Shown one piece after another: positions 30,696-62,203 of a stretch of DNA of 64,000 nt. The notes beneath the pieces are model-generated. The model did not search any database, was not told the DNA's origin, and worked only from the letters and a program-made list of their open reading frames with translations. Each line of letters begins with the position of its first letter. Position 1 is the stretch's first letter. The position numbers and the translations under genes are program-made. This stretch comes from an uncultured Candidatus Saccharibacteria bacterium. Its GTDB lineage: Bacteria > Patescibacteriota > Minisyncoccia > Phycocordibacterales > CSBR16-119. The DNA is taken from NCBI GenBank assembly GCA_964426385.1, contig CAYRQF010000003.1, forward strand, positions 22,938 to 86,937. Reading direction: 5' to 3'.

Positions 30696-32858
30696 ATGTC
30701 TCGCGACTATCCACTGAACAAAGTTAGGAATTTCGGAATCATTGCCCACATCGATGCCGGCAAGACCACCACATCTGAGCGTGTGCTTTTTTACACAGGG
30801 ATGTCTCACAAAATCGGGGAAGTGCATGAGGGTGATACCGTCATGGACTGGATGGAACAGGAGCGAGAGCGAGGCATTACTATTACTTCAGCTGCTACGA
30901 CATGCTTCTGGAGCCCTTCATACATGCCAAAGGACGATGTTTCTAAGAAAACTCGTTTCAACTTGATCGACACCCCAGGACACATCGACTTCACTATCGA
31001 GGTGAAGCGCTCACTTCGTGTCCTCGACGGCGCCGTTGTCGTATTCGACGGAGTTGCGGGAGTAGAGCCTCAGTCAGAGACTAACTGGCGTTATGCCGAT
31101 GAGGGTAACGTTCCACGTCTTTGCTTCATCAACAAGCTCGATCGAACAGGAGCCTCTTATGACAAGTCGTATCAGAGCATCCTTGATCGTTTGACCAAGA
31201 AAGCTGTCCGTATCCAGATCCCAGTTGGACTCGAAGACCAGTTCTCTGCAGTTATCGACCTTCTCAAGATGAAGGCTTATAAATTCGAAGGCGACAAAGG
31301 TAAAGACATCATCGAGATGGAAATACCTGAGAGTCACAAGGTAGAAGCTGAGAAGCTTCACCTAGAGCTCATCGAGAAAATCGTTGAGAATGATGAGACT
31401 ATGATGTCTGCATACCTAGACGGTAAGACAGATTTCCCAATAGACGAACTCAAGGCAGTATTGCGAAAAGCGGTTATCAAGAACGAAATCTTCCCAGTAT
31501 TCTGCGGATCAGCTCTAAAGAATAAGGGTGTTCAGCTCGTTCTCGACGGCGTTATCGATTACTTACCATCTCCTCTAGATATCCCGATGACACATGGTAT
31601 CGACCCGAATACTGGCGAGACTATAACTCGCGAGCCTTCTGATACCGCGCCACTTTCAGCTCTCGCTTTCAAGCTCCAGTCTGATCCATACGTTGGACAG
31701 CTTACTTTTATCCGTGTCTACTCTGGATCTCTCGAGGCAGGATCATATGTATACAACGCAACAAAAAATACCAAAGAACGCATCGGCCGAATCCTCCGTA
31801 TGCATGCTAACGAGCGTGAAGAGGTGAAGACTGTCTACGCTGGAGAGATTGCTGCGGCTGTCGGACTTAAAGATACGACAACATCAGATACTCTCTGTGA
31901 TGAGAACAATCCTATCATTCTAGAGCGAATTATCGCCCCAGAACCTGTTATCTCGATGCGTATCGAACCGAAGACCAAGGCTGACCAGGAGAAAATGGGA
32001 CTTGCGCTCAACAGACTCTCTGCTGAGGACCCAACATTCCGTGTGTCATCTGATCCAGAAACAGGCGAGACTATTATCGCCGGTATGGGAGAGCTACACC
32101 TAGAAATTCTCGTCGACCGTATGAAGAGAGAGTTCACTGTCGAAGCGAACACTTCTGCTCCACAGGTTGCATTCCGCGAAACCATCAAAGGCAATGCCGA
32201 TGTCGATCACAAGTACGTAAAACAGTCTGGAGGACGAGGACAGTACGGTCATGTCAAAATCAGACTTTCGCCGATCGACTACTCTGTTGCAGAGGAAGAT
32301 TTACCGAAGAATACAACTCGTGAGAACGGATTCGAGTTCGTTAACTCTATCCGCGGAGGAGTTATTCCTAACGAGTACATCCCAGCAGTTGAGAAGGGTA
32401 TCATCGAGAGTATGCAACGAGGAGTTGTTGCTGGATATCCTATTACAGACGTTCGCGTAGAGCTATACGATGGTTCGTATCACGATGTCGACTCCTCAGA
32501 AATCGCCTTCAAGATCGCTGCATCCATGGCGTTCCAAGAAGCAGCAAAGAAAGCGAACCCTGTAATCCTCGAACCAGTCATGAAAGTCGAAGTTGTGGCC
32601 CCTCACTCATATATGGGAGACATCACTGGAGATATCGCTTCGAAGCGTGGTCTCGTAGAAGGAACTGAAGACCGTGGTATGGTCCAGGCTATCCGCGCCA
32701 TGATCCCACTATCTGAAATGTTCGGATATATCAACAACCTCCGCTCGATGACTGCAGGACGCGGAAACTTCACTATGGAATTCGCAAAGTATGATGTTGT
32801 TCCAAAGAACGTTGCCGAGGACATCATCAAGAAGAGAATGGGAACACCAGCGAAATAG
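30696..32858 (+). CDS. fusA: elongation factor G
   Basis: [10 protein letters not shown]1 motif, DTPGHIDF. 720 aa. Confidence 0.95.
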
Positions 32859-32867
32859 TGAGCTTTG

Positions 32868-32963
32868 AGTGGCTAGCTTATAGCTTTTAGAAATCAAAAA
32901 TCCCCGTGAGGGGATTTTTGATTGGTGTCCCATAAGCTAAAAGCAATCAGCTAGAAGCTACTT
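32868..32963. repeat. inverted pair of the short AGCTAKAAGCTAAAAGC repeat family flanking the fusA terminator
   Basis: Left arm ctagcttatagcttttag (reverse orientation) and right arm ataagctaaaagcaatcagctagaagcta bracket the hairpin at 32896-32919. Confidence 0.7.
32896..32919. terminator. stem-loop terminator aaaaatccccgtgaggggattttt
   Basis: Perfect hairpin with A and T runs on both sides, so bidirectional. Confidence 0.65.
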
Positions 32964-33248
32964 TGTGGCGAAATAGCTCATAGCGATGCCGAATATGCAC
33001 ATGGCTCCTATAACAGGTCCTAGCACCCAGACGTTTGACGGTGTGATGGCAACAACTAGAGCGGTCATGATGACTGCCGCCGTACCAACGCTCTTGGATA
33101 TGGATATCAAATGAAATTCGTCTACAGGTGGTCGTTTGGCGACGACAACTTTGTCTTGGAGAGGCTTTGAACCAAAACCTTTACGAACCTTCTTCTTTGA
33201 GGAAGATTTTTTCTTTGGTTTAATTTGTAATTCTATTTCGTTAGCCAT
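32958..33248 (-). CDS. small basic membrane protein (hypothetical)
   Basis: Lys-rich N-terminus and two C-terminal TM helices. Start chosen at MANEIE; the ORF track extends to 33314. Confidence 0.45.
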   Translation of the reverse strand: MANEIELQIKPKKKSSSKKKVRKGFGSKPLQDKVVVAKRPPVDEFHLISISKSVGTAAVIMTALVVAITPSNVWVLGPVIGAMCIFGIAMSYFATK

Positions 33249-33373
33249 AGTTAGAAGTTTAACGCTCATTAAGTATAAACAATGATACGTAAAAAAGATA
33301 AGAGTTTTGCACACATTTTTATTTTTCAGCAGTTTTTGTTCGCGACAAGATGTAATTTTGATATAATTTAAGC

Positions 33374-50963: not shown

Positions 50964-53900
50964 ATGGATAAGGATACATCTACTCCGAAGAAGTCCGACG
51001 CCGCTCTCAAGGAAGAGGCGGTACTTAAATTCTGGGCGGATAATGGTATTTTCGAGAAAAGCTTGGCCAAGGATTCACCAAAAGGCGAGTTCGTTTTCTT
51101 CGAGGGTCCGCCAACGGCGAACGCCAAGCCAGCACTTCACCACCTAGAAGCCCGCGCCTTCAAAGACGTTATCCCTCGTTACAAGACCATGCAGGGCTTC
51201 CATGTCCGTCGCCAGGGAGGCTGGGACACTCACGGACTTCCTGTAGAGCTCCAGATCGAGAAGAAGCTCGGACTCAACTCGAAGAAAGCTATCGAGGAGT
51301 ATGGTATCGAGAAATTTAACCGTGAATGTCGGGAGAGCGTTTTCCAGTACATTAAAGACTGGGAAGACTTCACCGACCGTATCGGATACTGGGTGGACAA
51401 AAAGAACGCGTACTTCACATTCGACAATTCCTACATCGAGTCTGTCTGGAATGTCATGGCCAAGGTAAACGAGCGGGGACTACTCTACAAAGACTACCGT
51501 ATCGTGCCATGGTGTTCACGTTGCGGAACGCCACTCGCGTCACATGAGCTCGCACAGGGCTACGAAGATGTAAAAGATCTTTCGATATTCGTAAAATTCA
51601 AAGTAGTAGGCGCCACGAATACATATCTGCTCGCTTGGACGACGACGCCTTGGACTCTCCCCGGCAATGTCGCGTTGGCTGTTGGAGAAAAGATTGATTA
51701 TGTGAAAGTGAAAATCGGCGAAGAACTTCTGATTCTTGCCAAAACTCGGCTTGAGGTTTTAACCGAAAGTTACGAAATAGTAGAAGAAATAAAAGGTTCA
51801 GACCTGGTAGGGCTTTCATACGAACCACTATATCCATTCATCGCCAATTCACTAGAAGCTAAAAGCGATAAGCTAGAAGCTAGTTTTAAAGTATATTCTG
51901 CAGACTTCGTCACGACCGAGGATGGAACAGGTATCGTTCACATCGCACCTATGTATGGCCAGGACGACTTCGAGCTTGGGACCAAGATCGGGCTTCCGAA
52001 AGAACATGTAGTTGGAGTTGATGGTAAATTCCTCCCAGACACCGGTTTTTTCTCTGGAAGATTCGCTATGGAGAAAGATGAGAACGGCAAACCGACACTC
52101 GCTGTTGATGTCATAAACGACCTTACTACACGGGGGCTATTCTTTGGGAAGAAAAATTACGAACACACGTATCCACATTGTTGGCGATGTAAAACTCCGC
52201 TCATATATTACGCACGCGATTCTTGGTACATCCGCATGTCGGAGCTTCGTGATGAGCTGGTTAGAGAAAATGAAAGCATCAACTGGGAACCATCTCATAT
52301 AAAAGAGGGTCGCTTCGGCGAATGGCTACGTGAAATCAAAGACTGGGCAATATCCCGTGAGCGTTACTGGGGTACACCGCTCCCAGTCTGGGTAGCCGAA
52401 GACGGAGAGAAGTGGGTTGTGGGAAGCGTCGACGAACTCCGCAAGCATACCAAGCAATCTATAACTAAGATTATTTTTGTAAGACACGGACAGTCCGATG
52501 CAAATGTTGCACTTGTTTCTTCTAGTGTTCGTGACGCCCACCCACTAACGGAGCTTGGTCAAAAGCAGGCCAGGGATACCGCTGAGAAACTCCAGAGTCA
52601 TGACATTGACGTCGTTTATTGTTCGCCGATTCTACGTGCGAGACAAACAGCAGAGGCTTATCTGGAGTTGGCTGGAAAAGAAATGATGTTAGATGATCGT
52701 CTCGCTGAGATTGGTAGTGGTAGTTGGGAGGAGAAGACCCAACATGACCCGAGTATAAAGGCAGAGCGTGATGCTTATAAAGCTATGTCGCCAGATGAGA
52801 GGTTCGTGTTTAAACGCGGAAGTACTGGCGAGAGTTGGTCTGACTTACAAACTCGGGTAAAAGATTTTTTAGATGAAGTGCTCGCGAAGCATGCTGGCAA
52901 GACTATTGTTTGTTTTGCCCATCAGGGGACTGACGAGATAGGAATAAAACTGCTAAGAAGTTTGGATAACAAATATGCCGCAGAAAATCTCTTTCATGAG
53001 ATTGAGAATGGGGAAGTATTTCCTTTGTATATTGATGACAGAACTCAGAAGGAGTTCGATCTCCATCGTCCATTTATTGATGACGTAGTTCTAGAAAAGG
53101 ATGGTAAAGAATTCCGCCGAGTCAAAGAAGTCATGGATGTCTGGTTCGACTCTGGCGCCATGCCGTTCGCTCAACACCACTATCCGTTCGAGAACAAAGA
53201 GTACGTTGATGGCCCGGGCTATCCGGCAGACTTCATCTCCGAAGCCGTCGACCAAACTCGTGGTTGGTTCTATACGCTTCATGCCGTGGGAGTGCTTATG
53301 GGCAAGGGCCGTGCATACAACAATTGTATCTGTCTCGGGCACATCCTCGACGACAAGGGCAAGAAGATGAGCAAATCTATCGGTAACATCGTGAACCCTT
53401 GGGAGATGATGGACAAATACGGCGTAGATACTCTACGTCTCTGGATGTACTCGGTGAACCAGCCGGGAGACTCGAAAAACTTCGACGAGAAAACTGTGGC
53501 GGAGCTCCGTAATAAAATATTTAACCTACTTTATAACGTCATTGCATTCTACGAGCTTTATCGCGACAAATCACTAGAAGCTAAAAGCGATAAACTAGAA
53601 GCTAGTTCTAACGTTCTGGATATCTGGATACTAGAACGCCTCGCCGAGCTCTCGAATACCATGACGACGGGTCTAGATAGTTACAAACTGATGGAGCCGG
53701 TTCGAGCTATGCGTGAATTTATCGATGAACTTTCCACGTGGTATGTTCGTCGTTCGCGTGATCGCCTGAAGGACGGTGATCAAGATGCAAAACGTACTCT
53801 ATATATCGTACTGAAGAATATGGCCCGTTTCCTGGCTCCATTTGCTCCTTTTGCCGCCGAGGATATTTGGCAGACTTTACGTACGGACGCTGACCCATTG

Positions 53901-54368
53901 AGTGTGCACCTCGCAAACTGGCCCGACCAGAAGCCGACTGACCCGAAAATCTCCGAGGATATGCAGTCTGTCCGTGAGCTTGTTACTCTAGGTCTCGAGC
54001 TCCGTCAGAAGAGTGGAGTTAAGGTCAAACAACCTCTCGCAAGCTTTACTGTAACCAAGGAGCTAGCAGTCGAATACCAAGAGCTTCTAAAAGATGAGCT
54101 CAACGTTAAAGAGATTGCCGTCGGCGAAGCTGTTGGTTTAAACACGGACATCACACCAGAGCTCAAGAGGGAGGGAGACTTCCGAGAATTCCTGCGAAAC
54201 GTTCAGGGTCTTCGTAAAGACGCAGAACTTTCTCCGAACGACATGGTTACTTTGATTGCCCCAGAATCCTCTAAAGAGGTAATCATCGGTTTTGAAGGTG
54301 AGCTCAAGAAAGTTGCCGGGATAAAAGAAATAAAATTCGAAGGAGAGGAAATTAGGATAGAAAAATAA
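50964..54368 (+). CDS. ileS: isoleucyl-tRNA synthetase with an inserted histidine-phosphatase (PGAM-like) domain and two in-frame SLEAKSDKLEAS repeat insertions
   Basis: PHCWRCKTPLIYY, KMSKS, WFDSGAMP and DIWILERL motifs. Insert ~52465-53050 carries RHGQSDAN, LTELGQKQA, SPILRARQTA and AHQGT motifs. Confidence 0.95.
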   Translation: MDKDTSTPKKSDAALKEEAVLKFWADNGIFEKSLAKDSPKGEFVFFEGPPTANAKPALHHLEARAFKDVIPRYKTMQGFHVRRQGGWDTHGLPVELQIEKKLGLNSKKAIEEYGIEKFNRECRESVFQYIKDWEDFTDRIGYWVDKKNAYFTFDNSYIESVWNVMAKVNERGLLYKDYRIVPWCSRCGTPLASHELAQGYEDVKDLSIFVKFKVVGATNTYLLAWTTTPWTLPGNVALAVGEKIDYVKVKIGEELLILAKTRLEVLTESYEIVEEIKGSDLVGLSYEPLYPFIANSLEAKSDKLEASFKVYSADFVTTEDGTGIVHIAPMYGQDDFELGTKIGLPKEHVVGVDGKFLPDTGFFSGRFAMEKDENGKPTLAVDVINDLTTRGLFFGKKNYEHTYPHCWRCKTPLIYYARDSWYIRMSELRDELVRENESINWEPSHIKEGRFGEWLREIKDWAISRERYWGTPLPVWVAEDGEKWVVGSVDELRKHTKQSITKIIFVRHGQSDANVALVSSSVRDAHPLTELGQKQARDTAEKLQSHDIDVVYCSPILRARQTAEAYLELAGKEMMLDDRLAEIGSGSWEEKTQHDPSIKAERDAYKAMSPDERFVFKRGSTGESWSDLQTRVKDFLDEVLAKHAGKTIVCFAHQGTDEIGIKLLRSLDNKYAAENLFHEIENGEVFPLYIDDRTQKEFDLHRPFIDDVVLEKDGKEFRRVKEVMDVWFDSGAMPFAQHHYPFENKEYVDGPGYPADFISEAVDQTRGWFYTLHAVGVLMGKGRAYNNCICLGHILDDKGKKMSKSIGNIVNPWEMMDKYGVDTLRLWMYSVNQPGDSKNFDEKTVAELRNKIFNLLYNVIAFYELYRDKSLEAKSDKLEASSNVLDIWILERLAELSNTMTTGLDSYKLMEPVRAMREFIDELSTWYVRRSRDRLKDGDQDAKRTLYIVLKNMARFLAPFAPFAAEDIWQTLRTDADPLSVHLANWPDQKPTDPKISEDMQSVRELVTLGLELRQKSGVKVKQPLASFTVTKELAVEYQELLKDELNVKEIAVGEAVGLNTDITPELKREGDFREFLRNVQGLRKDAELSPNDMVTLIAPESSKEVIIGFEGELKKVAGIKEIKFEGEEIRIEK
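51849..51885 (+). repeat. 36-bp repeat cactagaagctaaaagcgataagctagaagctag, in-frame within the ileS editing-domain region
   Basis: Near-identical copy at 53571-53606; related copies at 61387-61417 and 32868-32963. Confidence 0.8.
53571..53606 (+). repeat. 36-bp repeat copy, in-frame within the ileS anticodon-binding region (1 nt different from copy 1)
   Basis: tcactagaagctaaaagcgataaactagaagctagt. Confidence 0.8.
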
Positions 54369-59934: not shown

Positions 59935-61405
59935 ACCTGTATATATAACTACGACGCTTCCATACGTGAACAACGACCCTCATGTCGGTTTTGCCATGGA
60001 GATAATCCGTGCGGACGTACTAGCTCGATACCATAAGCTTATGGGTAAAGAGGTTTTTTTCAATACCGGAACAGACGAGCATGGACAGAAACTCCTCGCT
60101 GACGCAATGAAGGCAGGGAAGGAGGTCAAAGACTACGTCGATTTTTACGCCGAGAAGTTCCGTGGACTGAAAGACCTCCTTAATATCACCGACGAAGTCC
60201 ACTTTATCCGCACGACCGATGTCCATCATGAGGCAGCAGCACAGGCTCTCTGGAAGCTCGTCGATGGCAATGGCTACATCTACAAGAAAAATTACCAGAC
60301 CAAATACTGTGTCGGCTGCGAGCTCGAGAAAACAGATTCTGAACTAGGTGACAAGGGTCAGTGTCCGATACATCCAAACAAGGAAATAGAACTAATCGAT
60401 GAGGAGAATTACTTCTTCGCTTTTTCAAAGCTCGAGGGAAAACTTAAAGAGCTATATGATAATAATCCTCGTCTCGTTATTCCGGAATTCCGTTTCAACG
60501 AGATGAAGGCATTCCTCGACAGGGGTCTCCAGGACTTTTCTATATCCCGTCAGAAGGAAAAGATGTCGTGGGGTGTGCCGGTACCAGGGGATGACAAACA
60601 TGTCATGTATGTTTGGTTCGACGCACTCACGAACTATATCTCTACACTAGGGTGGCCAGAGGACGCTGAAGGCAACTATGCGAAATTCTGGCAGGACGGC
60701 CTAAAAATCCAGTACTGCGGTAAGGATAACCTCCGTCAGCAATCTATGATGTGGCAGGCGATACTTCTCGCAGCGAATCTACCAAATACAGATCATATAA
60801 TCATCGATGGGTTCATAAACTCTGGTGGACAGAAGATGAGTAAGTCTTTGGGAAACGTTATAAATCCTTACGACCTTATAAAAGACTATGAATCTGTTGC
60901 AGGAGATCTTGCACCAGATGTTTTGCGTTATTACATGCTTCGTCATGTAAATCCTTTCGAGGATTCAGACATGACACTTGATACATTTAAGGAAGCCTAT
61001 AATTCAGGTCTAACAAACGGACTAGGTAATTTGGTTTCTAGGGTGATGAAAATGGCCACTACTTATGGTGTGAGTCTTTCGGAGGATGAAAAAACAATGA
61101 CTTATTATGGTACAGGAACAGAAGATTTTTTGAATGACTACAATATGATGATAAAAATGGATGAGATTTGGGCAAATTTTAAAAGTATTGATGAGTCTAT
61201 AACAAGAACTGAACCCTTTAAGAAAATAAAGACAGATCCAGATCAAGCAAAAAGCGACGTCCATACAATGTTGGTCCATTTGCTTGGAGGTGCTCTCGCG
61301 TTGGAACCATTTTTACCTAAAACATCTTTAATTCTGCAAGTTCTAATAAAAGAGAATAAGATGCCTGAAACTCCGCTCTTTAACCGTCTAGAAGCTAAAA
61401 GCTAA
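59924..61405 (+). CDS. metG: methionyl-tRNA synthetase (short form); the last codons come from the short repeat (…RLEAKS)
   Basis: HVGF (HIGH-like) motif, KMSKS, single Zn-knuckle. The ORF track starts at 59876. Confidence 0.9.
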   Translation: MSNRPVYITTTLPYVNNDPHVGFAMEIIRADVLARYHKLMGKEVFFNTGTDEHGQKLLADAMKAGKEVKDYVDFYAEKFRGLKDLLNITDEVHFIRTTDVHHEAAAQALWKLVDGNGYIYKKNYQTKYCVGCELEKTDSELGDKGQCPIHPNKEIELIDEENYFFAFSKLEGKLKELYDNNPRLVIPEFRFNEMKAFLDRGLQDFSISRQKEKMSWGVPVPGDDKHVMYVWFDALTNYISTLGWPEDAEGNYAKFWQDGLKIQYCGKDNLRQQSMMWQAILLAANLPNTDHIIIDGFINSGGQKMSKSLGNVINPYDLIKDYESVAGDLAPDVLRYYMLRHVNPFEDSDMTLDTFKEAYNSGLTNGLGNLVSRVMKMATTYGVSLSEDEKTMTYYGTGTEDFLNDYNMMIKMDEIWANFKSIDESITRTEPFKKIKTDPDQAKSDVHTMLVHLLGGALALEPFLPKTSLILQVLIKENKMPETPLFNRLEAKS

Positions 61406-61417
61406 CAGCTATAAGCT
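61387..61417 (+). repeat. short-repeat copy ctagaagctaaaagctaacagctataagct spanning the metG stop and ending at the tatD ATG
   Basis: Matches the AGCTAKAAGCTAAAAGC-N4-AGCTAKAAGCT family. Confidence 0.7.
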
Positions 61418-62203
61418 ATGCGTTACTTCGATATCCATTCGCATCTAAACCTTTCGCCTCTATCGGAAGATAAGGCGAGGATCATAAAAACTCTCGAGGA
61501 AAAAGAAGTGAGTACAATTACTGTGGGTGTTGATCTCGTAACTTCTGAACAAGCTGTCGAGATCGCACAGGATAGCGTGAATCTTTTTGCTTCTGTAGGC
61601 TTTCACCCATCAGACGCGGGGAAGAAAGAGTTTGATGCAGAAAAATTCCGCGATCTCGCGGGTAGGGAAAAAGTAGTCGCCATCGGCGAATGCGGATTAG
61701 ATTACTTCCGGGTAGAGTCGAGCGACACTGAGACCAAGAATTTGCAGAAAGAAATTTTTATAAAACAAATCGATTTATCTATCGATAAAAATTTACCACT
61801 TATCCTCCATGTTCGTCCACAGAAGGGGACAATGGACGCCTATGAAGATGTTTTGGAAATTCTCCAATCTTACTCTCGCAAAAAACCAAGAGGCGACGTG
61901 CATTTTTTCGTTGGTTCTCCGGAAATTGCCCAAAGATTTTTGAGTCTAGGTTTTTACTTGTCATTCACTGGGGTTGTCACATTTGCCCGAGACTATGACG
62001 AAGTCATCAGACTCACCCCATTAGACCGTATCCTTACAGAAACCGATGCACCATTCGTCACACCCGTTCCATATAGGGGGCAGACATGCGAGCCATGGAT
62101 GGTGGAGGAGGTAGTCAGAAAGATTGCTGATATCAAGGGGCTCGAACTGGAAGAATTCCGTCTCCAAGTGATTCAGAACACCAAAAGCCTTTTTGGGGTC
62201 TAG
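61418..62203 (+). CDS. tatD: TatD-family metal-dependent deoxyribonuclease
   Basis: MRYFDIHSHL, ...HFF..., ETDAPF motifs. Confidence 0.9.
   Translation: MRYFDIHSHLNLSPLSEDKARIIKTLEEKEVSTITVGVDLVTSEQAVEIAQDSVNLFASVGFHPSDAGKKEFDAEKFRDLAGREKVVAIGECGLDYFRVESSDTETKNLQKEIFIKQIDLSIDKNLPLILHVRPQKGTMDAYEDVLEILQSYSRKKPRGDVHFFVGSPEIAQRFLSLGFYLSFTGVVTFARDYDEVIRLTPLDRILTETDAPFVTPVPYRGQTCEPWMVEEVVRKIADIKGLELEEFRLQVIQNTKSLFGV

Follow-up and report, generated by a model that had tools for sequence, protein, structure and literature searches.

We analysed a stretch of 64,000 nt of DNA (hereafter, the window) from an uncultured, ultra-small bacterium of the CPR, in which the gene ileS carries two nearly identical copies of a short repeat, and in which related arrays lie downstream of fusA and at the junction of metG and tatD (Table 1). 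The ileS product matched the IleRS 8c8w of the PDB (E = 1.8e-235), and the Pfam domains tRNA-synt_1, His_Phos_1 and Anticodon_1 were detected in it. A histidine-phosphatase domain was found to be inserted in this IleRS at aa 503-667. The gene is visibly mosaic, and this mosaicism blurs its ancestral state. Its DNA showed 0 differences over 3405 nt in two further, independent assemblies (Logan SRR12762275 and ENA ERZ3602260), which rules out an assembly artefact as the source of the copies, and the array length at both sites was constant across the three independent assemblies.

A single mismatch in 37 nt, which is synonymous (AAG versus AAA), separates the two ileS copies, and no comparable pair of matching blocks arose in 100 shuffles. 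Both are in the reading frame of ileS, and the distance between them (1722 nt) is a multiple of 3. Site 1 lies directly before GTGIVHIAP in the CP1/editing region, and site 2 directly before the Anticodon_1 domain, which starts at aa 886. A reading of the sequence alone had already reported such a pair with one mismatch, its frame, its placement in these domains and the presence of related copies elsewhere in the window, and our results agree with it on each of these points. It had also described the element as a 36-bp repeat. The repetition is real, but the block is no arbitrary 36-mer: in it, a 7-nt unit (CTANAAG) follows itself head to tail five times. Tandem Repeats Finder assigned a period of 7 and 4.4-4.6 copies to the arrays at 51852-51883, 53574-53605 and 61388-61418, with unit matches of only 72-83%; that is, the arrays are degenerate. 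Sites 1 and 2 additionally share a non-canonical CGATAAG unit (hereafter, the GAT unit) and the non-repeat flanks TCA and AGTT.

Table 1. Positions of ileS, its two repeat copies and the related arrays in the window
Feature	Coordinates	Strand	Description
ileS	50964..54368	+	Type-2, eukaryote-like IleRS, 1134 aa; host of both coding copies (ORF list)
Site-1 copy	51849..51885	+	37-nt identity block TCACTAGAAGCTAAAAGCGATAAGCTAGAAGCTAGTT; encodes SLEAKSDKLEAS, aa 296-307; loop of the CP1/editing domain
Site-1 heptamer array proper	51852-51883	+	CTAGAAG CTAAAAG CGATAAG CTAGAAG CTAG
Site-2 copy	53571..53607	+	Encodes SLEAKSDKLEAS, aa 870-881; linker joining the catalytic core to the anticodon-binding domain
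Left arm of inverted array pair	32870..32890	-	Reverse complement CTAAAAGCTATAAGCTAGCCA; 12 nt past the fusA stop codon
Core hairpin of two-way terminator	32891..32923	.	AAATCAAAAATCCCC GTGA GGGGATTTTTGATT; between fusA and a convergent 118-aa minus-strand ORF
Right arm of inverted array pair	32930..32960	+	CCATAAG CTAAAAG CAATCAG CTAGAAG CTA
metG/tatD junction array	61388..61417	+	CTAGAAG CTAAAAG CTAACAG CTATAAG CT

Scanning the window for four CTANAAG units (score of at least 18 of 24) yielded 12 overlapping matches, all at five places, namely the two ileS sites, the two arms at the fusA terminator and the metG/tatD junction; shuffled sequences yielded 0. The 15-mer CTAGAAGCTAAAAGC occurs exactly three times in the window, also outside ileS, and when two mismatches were allowed, 6 matches were found against 0.11 expected. 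The density of the arrays is five arms in 64 kb, and near-identity is confined to the two ileS copies. Downstream of fusA, the left arm pairs with the right arm and lengthens the terminator stem (region 32855-32975: folding energy -46.4 kcal/mol, z = -5.9), and the last three bases of the right arm are the complement of the stop codon of the minus-strand ORF at 32958-33314. The junction array provides the final five codons of metG (LEAKS) and its TAA stop codon (61403-61405), and abuts the ATG of tatD (61418). No Rfam family matched at the gathering threshold anywhere in the window, the fusA arms giving only sub-threshold hairpin look-alikes, and identification of the arrays with a known RNA family was rejected on this basis. 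Likewise, a promoter or terminator reading of the metG-tatD array was dropped after a consensus scan detected no promoter-like or terminator-like site there.

We also considered where the two copies lie in the predicted structure of the protein. At site 1, the pLDDT falls to 74-80 over aa 291-310, and at site 2 a coil (pLDDT 73) is predicted between the helices at 842-865 and 884-905. Across homologues, the corresponding loops vary in length from 10 to 28 aa at site 1 and from 15 to 28 aa at site 2. Relative to the nearest homologue, the protein is longer by a net 8 aa at site 1 and by a net 2 aa at site 2, and not by 12 residues at each site as had been proposed; at site 2, the native KSLE...SS frame is retained. 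The alignments indicate that both copies replace pre-existing, length-variable loops and that neither is a clean insertion of 12 residues. At site 1, overwriting and insertion cannot be cleanly separated, because distant homologues natively have a long loop there that is similar to the peptide (ANTL..E...KLE.AFKVY).

Occurrence among relatives and in other genomes

If the repeated segments were ancestral protein sequence, they would be expected to be encoded broadly by IleRS homologues. When orthologues were compared, 117 of 120 homologues lacked a SLEAKS-like segment, and it was present in three (P0001, P0007 and P0009). Site 2 was observed, among the 120 listed homologues, in the organism of the window only, and the site-1 copy is common to two other lineages (L121 and L122) whose IleRS is 70-73% identical. 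The sequence-only reading had proposed a recently spreading element; this description suits site 2, but not site 1, given its presence in these two lineages. Over 33 nt, site 1 is identical to L122 at 32 positions (P = 7.6e-5) and to L121 at 30 positions (P = 0.003), and the metG/tatD junction array, which is orthologous in L121, is identical at 28 of 30 nt (P = 0.0015), these P values being computed against a gene-wide nucleotide identity of 0.69. The arrays are far better conserved than the DNA around them; the junction array has been kept in the window and in L121 despite an identity of only 54% between their metG genes. The GAT unit of both window copies corresponds to GAA in L122 and to CAA in L121. 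Windows of 10 codons in which all ten are identical to L122 were found at site 1 only. A recent recombination tract as the cause of the conservation of site 1 was rejected, because the excess of codon identity with L122 does not extend beyond the element.

In the nearest homologue (P0002, locus L123, 81% identical), neither of the ileS copies is present, nor is the metG-tatD array; this absence covers three of the four window loci, as the fusA region of L123 was not recovered. In L122 and L123, which both lack the metG/tatD array, the gap between stop and start codons is 1 nt, and the fusA arms are absent at the same position in three relatives with 90-94% identical EF-G. No arrays were found in ~110 kb of L123, L125, L126, L136 and L137, in contrast to five in 22 kb of L121. 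In L121, an array of 32 nt lies upstream of rpsF, and the sequences on either side of it are conserved both in the window and in L123. The arrays at ileS, at metG-tatD and before rpsR of L121 have in common the order of their units, CTAGAAG-CTAAAAG-.... A trait of mobile elements, namely that orthologous sites are filled in some related genomes and empty in others, was observed at all four window loci and at rpsF of L121, and relatives differ by the presence or absence of whole modules, not by unit number. In an N-terminal IleRS tree, P0002, which has no element, is placed between P0001 and P0007, which have it, and P0009 lies far off; since the tree interleaves P0002 with carriers, site 1 requires at least two gains or losses, or recombination. 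At the position downstream of fusA, L135 carries another heptamer (AAGATTT).

Since 7 and 3 are coprime, TAA or TAG comes up every 21 nt in each reading frame of a regular array. The suggestion that a single stop-free frame dictates how the copies are read therefore reverses cause and effect: in coding copies the stop-giving unit is altered (to CGATAAG in ileS, and to TAT, TAC, CAA, TCA or TTG elsewhere), and at metG the TAA of the array is used as the stop codon. On this arithmetic and this pattern of altered units, a permitted reading frame was rejected as a constraint. Seven further in-frame arrays were found in Pfam-confirmed genes of CPR-type genomes, with the stop-giving unit altered in each; the further host genes, in CPR-type genomes only, were those of RNase HII, TilS, glycosyltransferases and PEP synthase. 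In-frame coding arrays occurred at 5 of 21 CPR-labelled loci compared with 0 of 96 in other phyla (P = 1.2e-4). The intergenic arrays and the in-frame copies together support the earlier view that short repetitive DNA is tolerated in coding sequence.

Many unrelated phyla carry long, near-perfect arrays of the AAGCTAN unit (~60 units at most, by extension), which often adjoin arrays of other heptamers; culturable carriers include Chitinophaga, Dyadobacter and Shewanella. Of 123 arrays, 17 are followed, when read in the AAGCTA orientation, by the start of an ORF of 100 aa or more no further than 15 nt away, compared with 1 in the reverse orientation. The exact 32-mer of the ileS type matched 1 of 241 million metagenome records, in a generic intergenic array of a GC-rich organism; a widespread mobile element defined by this 32-mer was rejected on these grounds. 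A phage as vector was regarded as improbable, as only 6 hits were found among 2.9 million viral contigs. Our literature search found no paper on AAGCTAN arrays or on heptamer repeats in Patescibacteria.

Comparison with known repeat systems

Several classes of short repeats share some properties with these arrays. The DUS of Neisseria, the USS of Pasteurellaceae and the HIP1 of cyanobacteria are motifs of 8-12 nt that occur about once per kb genome-wide. Like the arrays, they occur inside genes in frames that the protein tolerates, form inverted pairs in terminators, and are conserved at the nucleotide level. In contrast, the five arms in 64 kb and the lack of any array in ~110 kb of related loci, including several close relatives, fall far below the density of ~1 per kb seen for DNA-uptake sequences. 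REP/BIME elements are imperfect palindromes of 20-40 bp with a GTAG/CTAC tag, accompanied by a RAYT transposase gene in the genome. The pair downstream of fusA forms a long hairpin, and the C at 32961 after its right arm gives CTAC; the ileS and metG copies are non-palindromic. Cyanobacterial SDRs are reportedly dispersed elements of 21-27 nt, and are said to resemble the arrays in measuring tens of nt, in being dispersed, heptamer-associated and occasionally intragenic, and in having no known mobilising enzyme. They reportedly belong to other sequence families and to another phylum, and have heptamer arrays as their insertion sites; in the present case, what is repeated is the heptamer array.

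A parallel within genes is offered by Rickettsia palindromic elements (RPEs), which are described as palindromic elements of ~100-150 bp in ten families (Ogata et al. 2000, 2002; reviewed in PMC10969869). RPEs, like the ileS arrays, are short repeats found both between genes and in frame in unrelated housekeeping genes, at positions tolerated by the fold, and are present or absent among related genomes (PMC10969869). The ileS arrays likewise occupy, in frame, tolerated and surface-exposed parts of the protein, both sites being loops of variable length with dips in pLDDT. However, the elements studied here are tandems of 30-37 nt of a 7-nt unit without a long palindrome, and they replace loop residues, whereas RPEs, as described there, add a whole peptide module; moreover, the RPE host is described as an intracellular alphaproteobacterium, and the host here is a CPR bacterium.

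As for heptanucleotide repeats, TAACTGA direct repeats are known from Beggiatoaceae, cyanobacteria and Bacteroidetes, and, like long heptanucleotide simple-sequence repeats (SSR) and cyanobacterial STRR, have been described as essentially intergenic (PMC4679880). AAGCTAN arrays resemble such SSR, STRR and TAACTGA repeats in their 7-nt unit, in their patchy occurrence across phyla, in their position directly before start codons in one orientation, and in the stop codons that restrict coding overlap in every frame. The head-to-tail 7-nt units typical of STRRs were recovered both by Tandem Repeats Finder and by the scan for four CTANAAG units; the near-perfect units of strain-variable number were not, the units being degenerate and the length being constant in three assemblies. 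Unlike these repeats, the arrays described here are short, degenerate and fixed in the order of their units; they are located within conserved genes, where the unit that would give a stop is repaired, and different loci share copies. In neuO of E. coli K1, 3-53 perfect units of AAGACTC at the 5' end cause phase switching by slippage, and, as in ileS, the 7-nt repeats are translated, three units giving a 7-residue peptide repeat (PMC13001214). The ileS arrays differ in comprising 4.6 degenerate units in an essential gene without length variation in three assemblies, and thus do not behave as a phase-variable contingency locus of the neuO type.

Probable origin and tolerance of the ileS copies

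Judged from the sequence, the repetition is a DNA-level phenomenon of a short dispersed repeat family and not inherited protein sequence. It could be argued that SLEAKSDKLEAS-like loops are inherited IleRS features whose nucleotide likeness is incidental, as the loops of distant homologues are similar in length and partly in sequence (...EK.KLEKAFKVY at site 1 and YRDKSLE... at site 2). However, given the same peptide, the chance that at least 11 of 12 codons are identical is small (P = 2.2e-5), and the L125 homologue, which has a similar native loop (e.g. ANTLPESEKGKLEKAFKVY), encodes it with unrelated codons (CTT, GCG and others). The presence of the 15-mer outside ileS, the lack of the segment in nearly all homologues and the lack of both copies in the closest relative also speak against inheritance, which we regard as highly improbable; convergence or ancestry at the protein level was refuted by the codon statistics, the homologue survey and the DNA of the look-alike loop.

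The arrays might instead have been born in place by local slippage, each from a chance AAGCTA-AAGCTA seed such as K-L-E-A encoded by AAG CTA GAA GCT, with convergence accounting for the similarity of the copies; long heptanucleotide simple-sequence repeats of other bacteria are presumed to originate in this way. The strict period of 7, the long near-perfect AAGCTAN arrays beside other heptamers in many unrelated phyla and the AAGATTT heptamer of L135 are consistent with this origin, as is the statement attributed to Mrazek et al. 2007 in PMC4679880 that, among the long simple-sequence repeats of prokaryotes, no class is more abundant than the heptanucleotide repeats. Slippage is nevertheless unlikely, as the ileS copies share the CGATAAG unit and the non-repeat flanks, the same unit order recurs at separate loci, the units are degenerate, one-unit slips would shift the frame of an essential gene, and three assemblies agree in array length. 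It is also improbable, in our estimation, that the ileS copies persist because the array is a DNA or RNA signal selected wherever it is located, for example as a translation-start leader, a protein-binding site, a DNA-uptake-type signal or an extension of a terminator; persistence of this kind has been proposed for uptake sequences and HIP1 within genes. The high conservation of the arrays relative to the flanking coding DNA, including that of the junction array, could indeed reflect a function of the array inside the gene; the strong orientation bias, the lengthened terminator stem and the parallel with TAACTGA heptamers upstream of start codons in Beggiatoaceae (PMC4679880) point in the same direction. 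The low density, the five related loci free of arrays, the lack of a start codon or gene boundary after the ileS copies, the lack of Rfam matches and the negative consensus scan at metG-tatD argue against it.

The joint explanation that best fits these results, and that we consider fairly probable, is that the ileS segments are copies of a dispersed heptamer repeat, of which the older one at site 1 was patch-copied to site 2, and that both are neutrally tolerated. The repeat module would be a heptamer (AAGCTAN, read as CTANAAG) repeated four to five times in degenerate form, and its usual place in this Paceibacterota-like CPR lineage would be the boundary of a gene, either in the stem of a terminator or just ahead of a start codon. 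At site 1, an array may have overwritten the surface loop of the editing domain some time ago, being either common to the three lineages or recurrently acquired. A 37-nt patch might later have been copied from site 1 into the linker at site 2 in the lineage of the window. Two shared features, the GAT unit, which is specific to this lineage, and the TCA and AGTT flanks, lead us to infer that site 2 was recently copied from site 1; the direction follows from the fact that site 1 is common to L121 and L122 and site 2 is unique. A third copy outside the window could also have been the donor of both.

With regard to the mechanism, we favour conversion by a short templated patch over transposition. 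Terminal inverted repeats are absent from the ileS copies, whose ends show only the 4-nt palindrome CTAG with no inverted partner nearby, and comparison of filled with empty sites at both ileS sites, at metG-tatD and at rpsF of L121 revealed no target-site duplication, native bases having been replaced. Such a patch might have arisen by gene conversion or by template switching during replication, aided by native partial similarity (CTgGAg...AGTTC, which encodes SLE...SS) and by microhomology where patch and host sequence meet (CAA-N-TCA to the left and AGTT to the right), these microhomologies being of 3-4 nt only and the ancestral sequence being taken from the 81%-identical relative. The sense translation, LEAKSxKLEA, would be a hydrophilic, helix-prone heptad peptide, and both copies may be tolerated because of this property and because both sites are loops of naturally varying length. 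The SLEAKSDKLEAS peptide itself is probably without specific function; function, if any, possibly resides in the intergenic arrays, as mRNA leader or terminator elements.

A more general possibility, which we consider somewhat unlikely, is that CPR/Patescibacteria harbor a class of very small, previously undescribed copy-and-paste modules of ~30-70 nt, built of AGCT-centred 7-nt units and devoid of the hallmarks of transposons, which spread, time and again overwrite surface loops in essential proteins and are kept at the nucleotide level as a recognised signal. Such modules would spread among gene boundaries and hit loops in IleRS, the MetRS C-terminus, TilS, RNase HII, PEP synthase and glycosyltransferases, and the signal that retains them might be a translation-start leader, a terminator arm, a protein-binding site or a DNA-uptake tag. 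In that case, some of the diversity of loops in CPR proteins would have its source in non-coding repeat DNA and not in evolution at the protein level.

These results suggest that housekeeping proteins can have surface loops overwritten by repeat DNA that normally lies between genes and yet remain intact. Repeat DNA in protein-coding genes, known mainly from Rickettsia, is now also observed in CPR, with a much smaller element of different build. A heptamer array inherently bears stop codons in all frames and needs repair to survive in a gene, and here it appears twice in an essential aminoacyl-tRNA synthetase; site 2 would represent a concrete, datable case in which a loop was rewritten in one step by a copied short patch of DNA of the non-coding type. 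If the wider pattern at CPR-labelled loci holds, loop variation in CPR proteomes would need a different reading, annotators should expect low-complexity segments of the LEAKS or KLKA type in CPR genes, and the role of the intergenic arrays beside start codons and terminators in many phyla would be reopened.

Two copies of a heptamer array in ileS

The isoleucyl-tRNA synthetase (IleRS) gene ileS (ORF 50964-54368, 1134 codons; PDB 8c8w, E = 1.8e-235; Pfam) contains two nearly identical 37-nt copies, site 1 and site 2, that share its reading frame. This agrees with the sequence-only reading, which had described an in-frame repeat pair, and the sole difference between the copies, AAG to AAA, is synonymous. 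No comparable pair was obtained in 100 shuffles. Each block consists of five tandem 7-nt units (CTAGAAG CTAAAAG CGATAAG CTAGAAG CTAG), and Tandem Repeats Finder independently called period-7 arrays at 51852-51883, 53574-53605 and 61388-61418. An assembly artefact was ruled out, because ileS showed 0 differences over 3405 nt from two other independent assemblies of other samples. The spacing of 1722 nt between the copies is divisible by 3; were these direct repeats (51849-53607) to recombine, an essential gene would lose 574 codons in frame, which is a potential liability.

Arrays of 7-nt units in the window and in other loci
Feature	Locus	Position	Strand	Detail
ileS site 1	window	51849-51885	+	TCACTAGAAGCTAAAAGCGATAAGCTAGAAGCTAGTT; encodes SLEAKSDKLEAS, aa 296-307
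ileS site 2	window	53571-53607	+	one difference from TCACTAGAAGCTAAAAGCGATAAGCTAGAAGCTAGTT; encodes SLEAKSDKLEAS, aa 870-881
metG/tatD array	window	61388-61417		supplies last five codons of metG (LEAKS) and TAA stop
fusA-terminator arm	window	32870-32890	-	inverted pair; CTANAAG scan
fusA-terminator arm	window	32930-32960	+	inverted pair; CTANAAG scan
Upstream array	L121	19505-19535		immediately upstream of rpsF
Upstream array	L121	20728-20758		immediately upstream of rpsR
Upstream array	L121	21115-21142		immediately upstream of adk
RNase HII	L008	7723-7749		in frame
TilS	L010	1730-1800		in frame; about ten AGCTNNN units, roughly 70 nt, translated as AKQAKSQELKAKSRGYQLSANSCQL
Family-4 glycosyltransferase (GT4)	L024	2450-2476		in frame
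GT4	L024	4724-4750		in frame
GT4	L044	7046-7072		in frame
GT4	L094	2827-2853		in frame
PEP synthase	L042	7049-7075		in frame; interdomain linker

We considered the possibility that the repetition is inherited protein sequence, which predicts that IleRS homologues broadly encode such segments without DNA identity. Among the best 120 homologues, only three (P0001, the window's own protein, P0007 and P0009) contained LEAKSxKLEAS, in each case at site 1 only, and the site-2 copy was confined to the window's organism. In P0002, the closest homologue (81% identical; locus L123), the two loops read DFIKPNDKSHKVY (site 1) and KSLETSEVPKSS (site 2), and their codons are unrelated to those of the window. 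The native site-1 loop of distant homologues is somewhat similar in protein (P0039, ANTLPESEKGKLEKAFKVY), but its DNA (CTT, GCG and so on) lacks the 7-nt periodicity. Given the peptide and the codon usage of the window, two encodings that arose independently would match in 11 or more of the 12 codons with a probability of 2.2e-5. Inherited protein sequence was thus ruled out; the repetition is at the nucleotide level, and the two copies are paralogous.

The placement of both copies in the domain structure was also correct in the sequence-only reading, as judged from the AlphaFold model and from the start of Pfam Anticodon_1 at aa 886. However, they are not clean insertions of 12 residues each: relative to P0002, the window's protein shows a net gain of 8 aa at the first site and 2 aa at the second, and both lie in length-variable loops. 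Loop length at site 1 falls into two classes, 10 aa in close and about 19 aa in distant relatives, with 18 in the window; at site 2 the commonest length is 16 aa, and the window again has 18. At site 2, the native K-S-L-E...S-S frame of P0002 is kept while the codons are swapped, from AGC CTG GAG...AGT TCC to TCA CTA GAA...AGT TCT. The AlphaFold model (mean pLDDT 87.7) dips exactly at aa 291-310 and 871-880, and models site 2 as coil between helices 842-865 and 884-905. The ileS pair provides a well-documented case in which repeat DNA has overwritten protein loops. The coding copies are probably by-products tolerated in such loops; their sense translation, L-E/K-A-K-S-x-K, is a hydrophilic heptad, whereas the antisense would be hydrophobic and full of TAG.

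The same protein contains a complete histidine-phosphatase domain (aa 503-667, 52470-52964; Pfam His_Phos_1, E = 4.8e-36, RHG motif), which interrupts the catalytic core between the counterparts of 8c8w residues 480 and 484. This insert occurred in all of the best 120 homologues (Paceibacterota, Nomurabacteria and similar), three of which (P0050, P0089 and P0105) also contain an HD domain. Our literature search found no paper on a histidine-phosphatase domain within IleRS.

Arrays at gene boundaries and their presence in relatives

Within the 64 kb, a scan for four CTANAAG units hit five sites only, and shuffles gave no hit; the exact 15-mer CTAGAAGCTAAAAGC is common to three of the window's copies. 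The metG/tatD array directly abuts the tatD ATG. Near fusA, the inverted arms flank the hairpin of a bidirectional terminator, which separates fusA from a small convergent ORF, and lengthen its stem; with the arms, the structure folds at -46.4 kcal/mol (z = -5.9). This ORF (32958-33314, minus strand, 118 aa) has its stop codon inside the right arm and had no Pfam match; comparable small minus-strand ORFs follow fusA in locus L136.

Relatives differed in whether they carry arrays at the orthologous positions. The metG-tatD array was present in the window and L121 and absent from L122 and L123, where stop and start are 1 nt apart. The terminator arms were absent in three relatives with 90-94% identical EF-G. 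In one of them, L135 (EF-G 94% identical), an AAGATTT repeat of about four units (2929-2991) occupies the position of the window's AAGCTAN arm, before the terminator hairpin, and the position downstream of fusA seems to attract heptamer arrays of differing sequence. L121 carries a 32-nt array 5' of rpsF whose flanks are conserved in the window and L123, and the array itself was absent from the orthologous region of both; its rpsR upstream array was absent from that of L123. Several L121 arrays open with a TCAC...CTAGAAGC lead-in, as the ileS copies do. No arrays were found in about 110 kb of five related loci.

Where shared, the arrays were better conserved than their surroundings, the gene-wide nucleotide identity being 0.69. 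Site 1 of the window was identical to that of L122 at 32/33 positions (P = 7.6e-5) and to that of L121 at 30/33 (P = 0.003), and the metG-tatD array matched L121 at 28/30 (P = 0.0015), despite a metG protein identity of 54%. Windows of ten codons with all ten the same as in L122 occurred on the site-1 element only. These results show a dispersed, labile, nucleotide-level repeat of 7-nt units at gene boundaries and, in this lineage, in protein loops.

Related arrays in other genomes

Scanning one genome per species for AAGCTAAAAGC-N6-CTANAAGCTA yielded at least 120 loci, against about 1 expected (our own estimate, assuming uniform base composition). The matches listed, to which the following counts refer, span Acidobacteriota, Bacteroidota, cyanobacteria, gammaproteobacteria and many groups of CPR (Patescibacteria-type ultra-small) bacteria. 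By unit-by-unit extension, most are tandem arrays, mostly of three to eight units, the longest having about 60, and they often adjoin arrays of other heptamers or come right after terminator hairpins. The arrays are strongly oriented: 17/123 are followed, no more than 15 nt downstream in the AAGCTA orientation, by the start of an ORF of 100 aa or more, compared with 1 in the reverse. In Chitinophaga, arrays lie directly 3' of terminator hairpins, and at several CPR loci they form inverted pairs. In 2.9 million viral contigs, the pattern occurred in six (L129-L134), two of which are labelled giant-virus bins.

Seven arrays lie in frame deep within long ORFs, all in CPR-type genomes (5/21 arrays in CPR-labelled loci versus 0/96 in other phyla; Fisher P = 1.2e-4). 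Two orthologous glycosyltransferases share an array at the same position, and only one of them has an array at a second position. Non-coding arrays were closed in all six frames in 95/116 cases. As 7 and 3 are coprime, a regular array runs into a stop every 21 nt in each frame, and in every coding copy the unit that would read TAA or TAG is altered to TAT, TAC, CAA, TCA, TTG or GAT; in metG, an unrepaired TAA serves as the stop codon. The single open frame thus reflects the choice of repaired unit and is not a constraint on insertion. The earlier interpretation is supported in part: it stands as to a DNA-level dispersed repeat tolerated in frame, but neither as to clean 12-aa insertion nor as to the significance of the single open frame.

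Origin and affinities of the element

Site 1 reads TCG CTA GAA GCC AAA AGC CAA AAG CTA GAA GCT AGT in L121 and CCA CTA GAA GCT AAA AGC GAA AAG CTA GAA GCT AGT in L122. In both window copies the irregular third unit has GAT, compared with CAA or GAA in the relatives, and the non-repeat flanks (TCA, AGTT) are also common to the two. On the simplest reading, site 2 derives from site 1 of the window's own lineage, or the two share an unseen donor, and the copying postdates the split from the L121 and L122 lineages. The arrays have the period 7 of heptanucleotide simple-sequence repeats, but slippage alone accounts neither for the irregular unit and flanks common to both copies nor for the unit order recurring across loci. 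Copying from site 1 probably involved a short templated patch, made by either gene conversion or template switching across 1.7 kb. Such an origin fits the junction microhomology of 3-4 nt (left, CAA-N-TCA; right, AGTT) and the native site-2 sequence, which already resembled both block ends.

In the N-terminal IleRS tree, P0002 (without the element) is the sister of P0001, with P0007 (with the element; carried by L121) just outside and P0009 (with the element) far away; the distribution of the site-1 element therefore calls for two or more gains or losses, or for recombination between lineages. Trees of the N-terminal, phosphatase and C-terminal segments of ileS disagreed with one another, and neighbouring genes across L121-L126 had inconsistent nearest relatives, metG being 78% identical to L126 versus only 54% (protein) to L121, and argS 70% to L122 versus 54% to L123. 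Taken together, these comparisons point to frequent recombination or gene replacement within a conserved gene order.

Among known systems, the closest functional parallel is the Rickettsia palindromic elements (RPEs), which occur in frame within housekeeping genes (PMC10969869). However, the ileS-type element does not qualify as a MITE or RPE: it lacks inverted ends and target duplications, measures only 30-37 nt, and is tandem instead of palindromic. Among the long simple-sequence repeats of prokaryotes, heptanucleotides are the most frequent class, and the oriented AAGCTAN arrays near ORF starts resemble the TAACTGA heptamer repeats upstream of start codons in Beggiatoaceae (PMC4679880). Unlike neuO (PMC13001214), the window's arrays do not behave as a slippage tract. 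The arrays are too sparse for a DNA-uptake sequence. No Rfam family matched, and the literature search found no paper on AAGCTAN arrays or on coding heptamer arrays in CPR bacteria. Candidate roles for the intergenic arrays are an mRNA leader, a terminator role or a recognition signal. We place the ileS-type arrays with selfish or simple repeat DNA inside genes, and the broader CPR-specific pattern of in-frame arrays merits a systematic survey.
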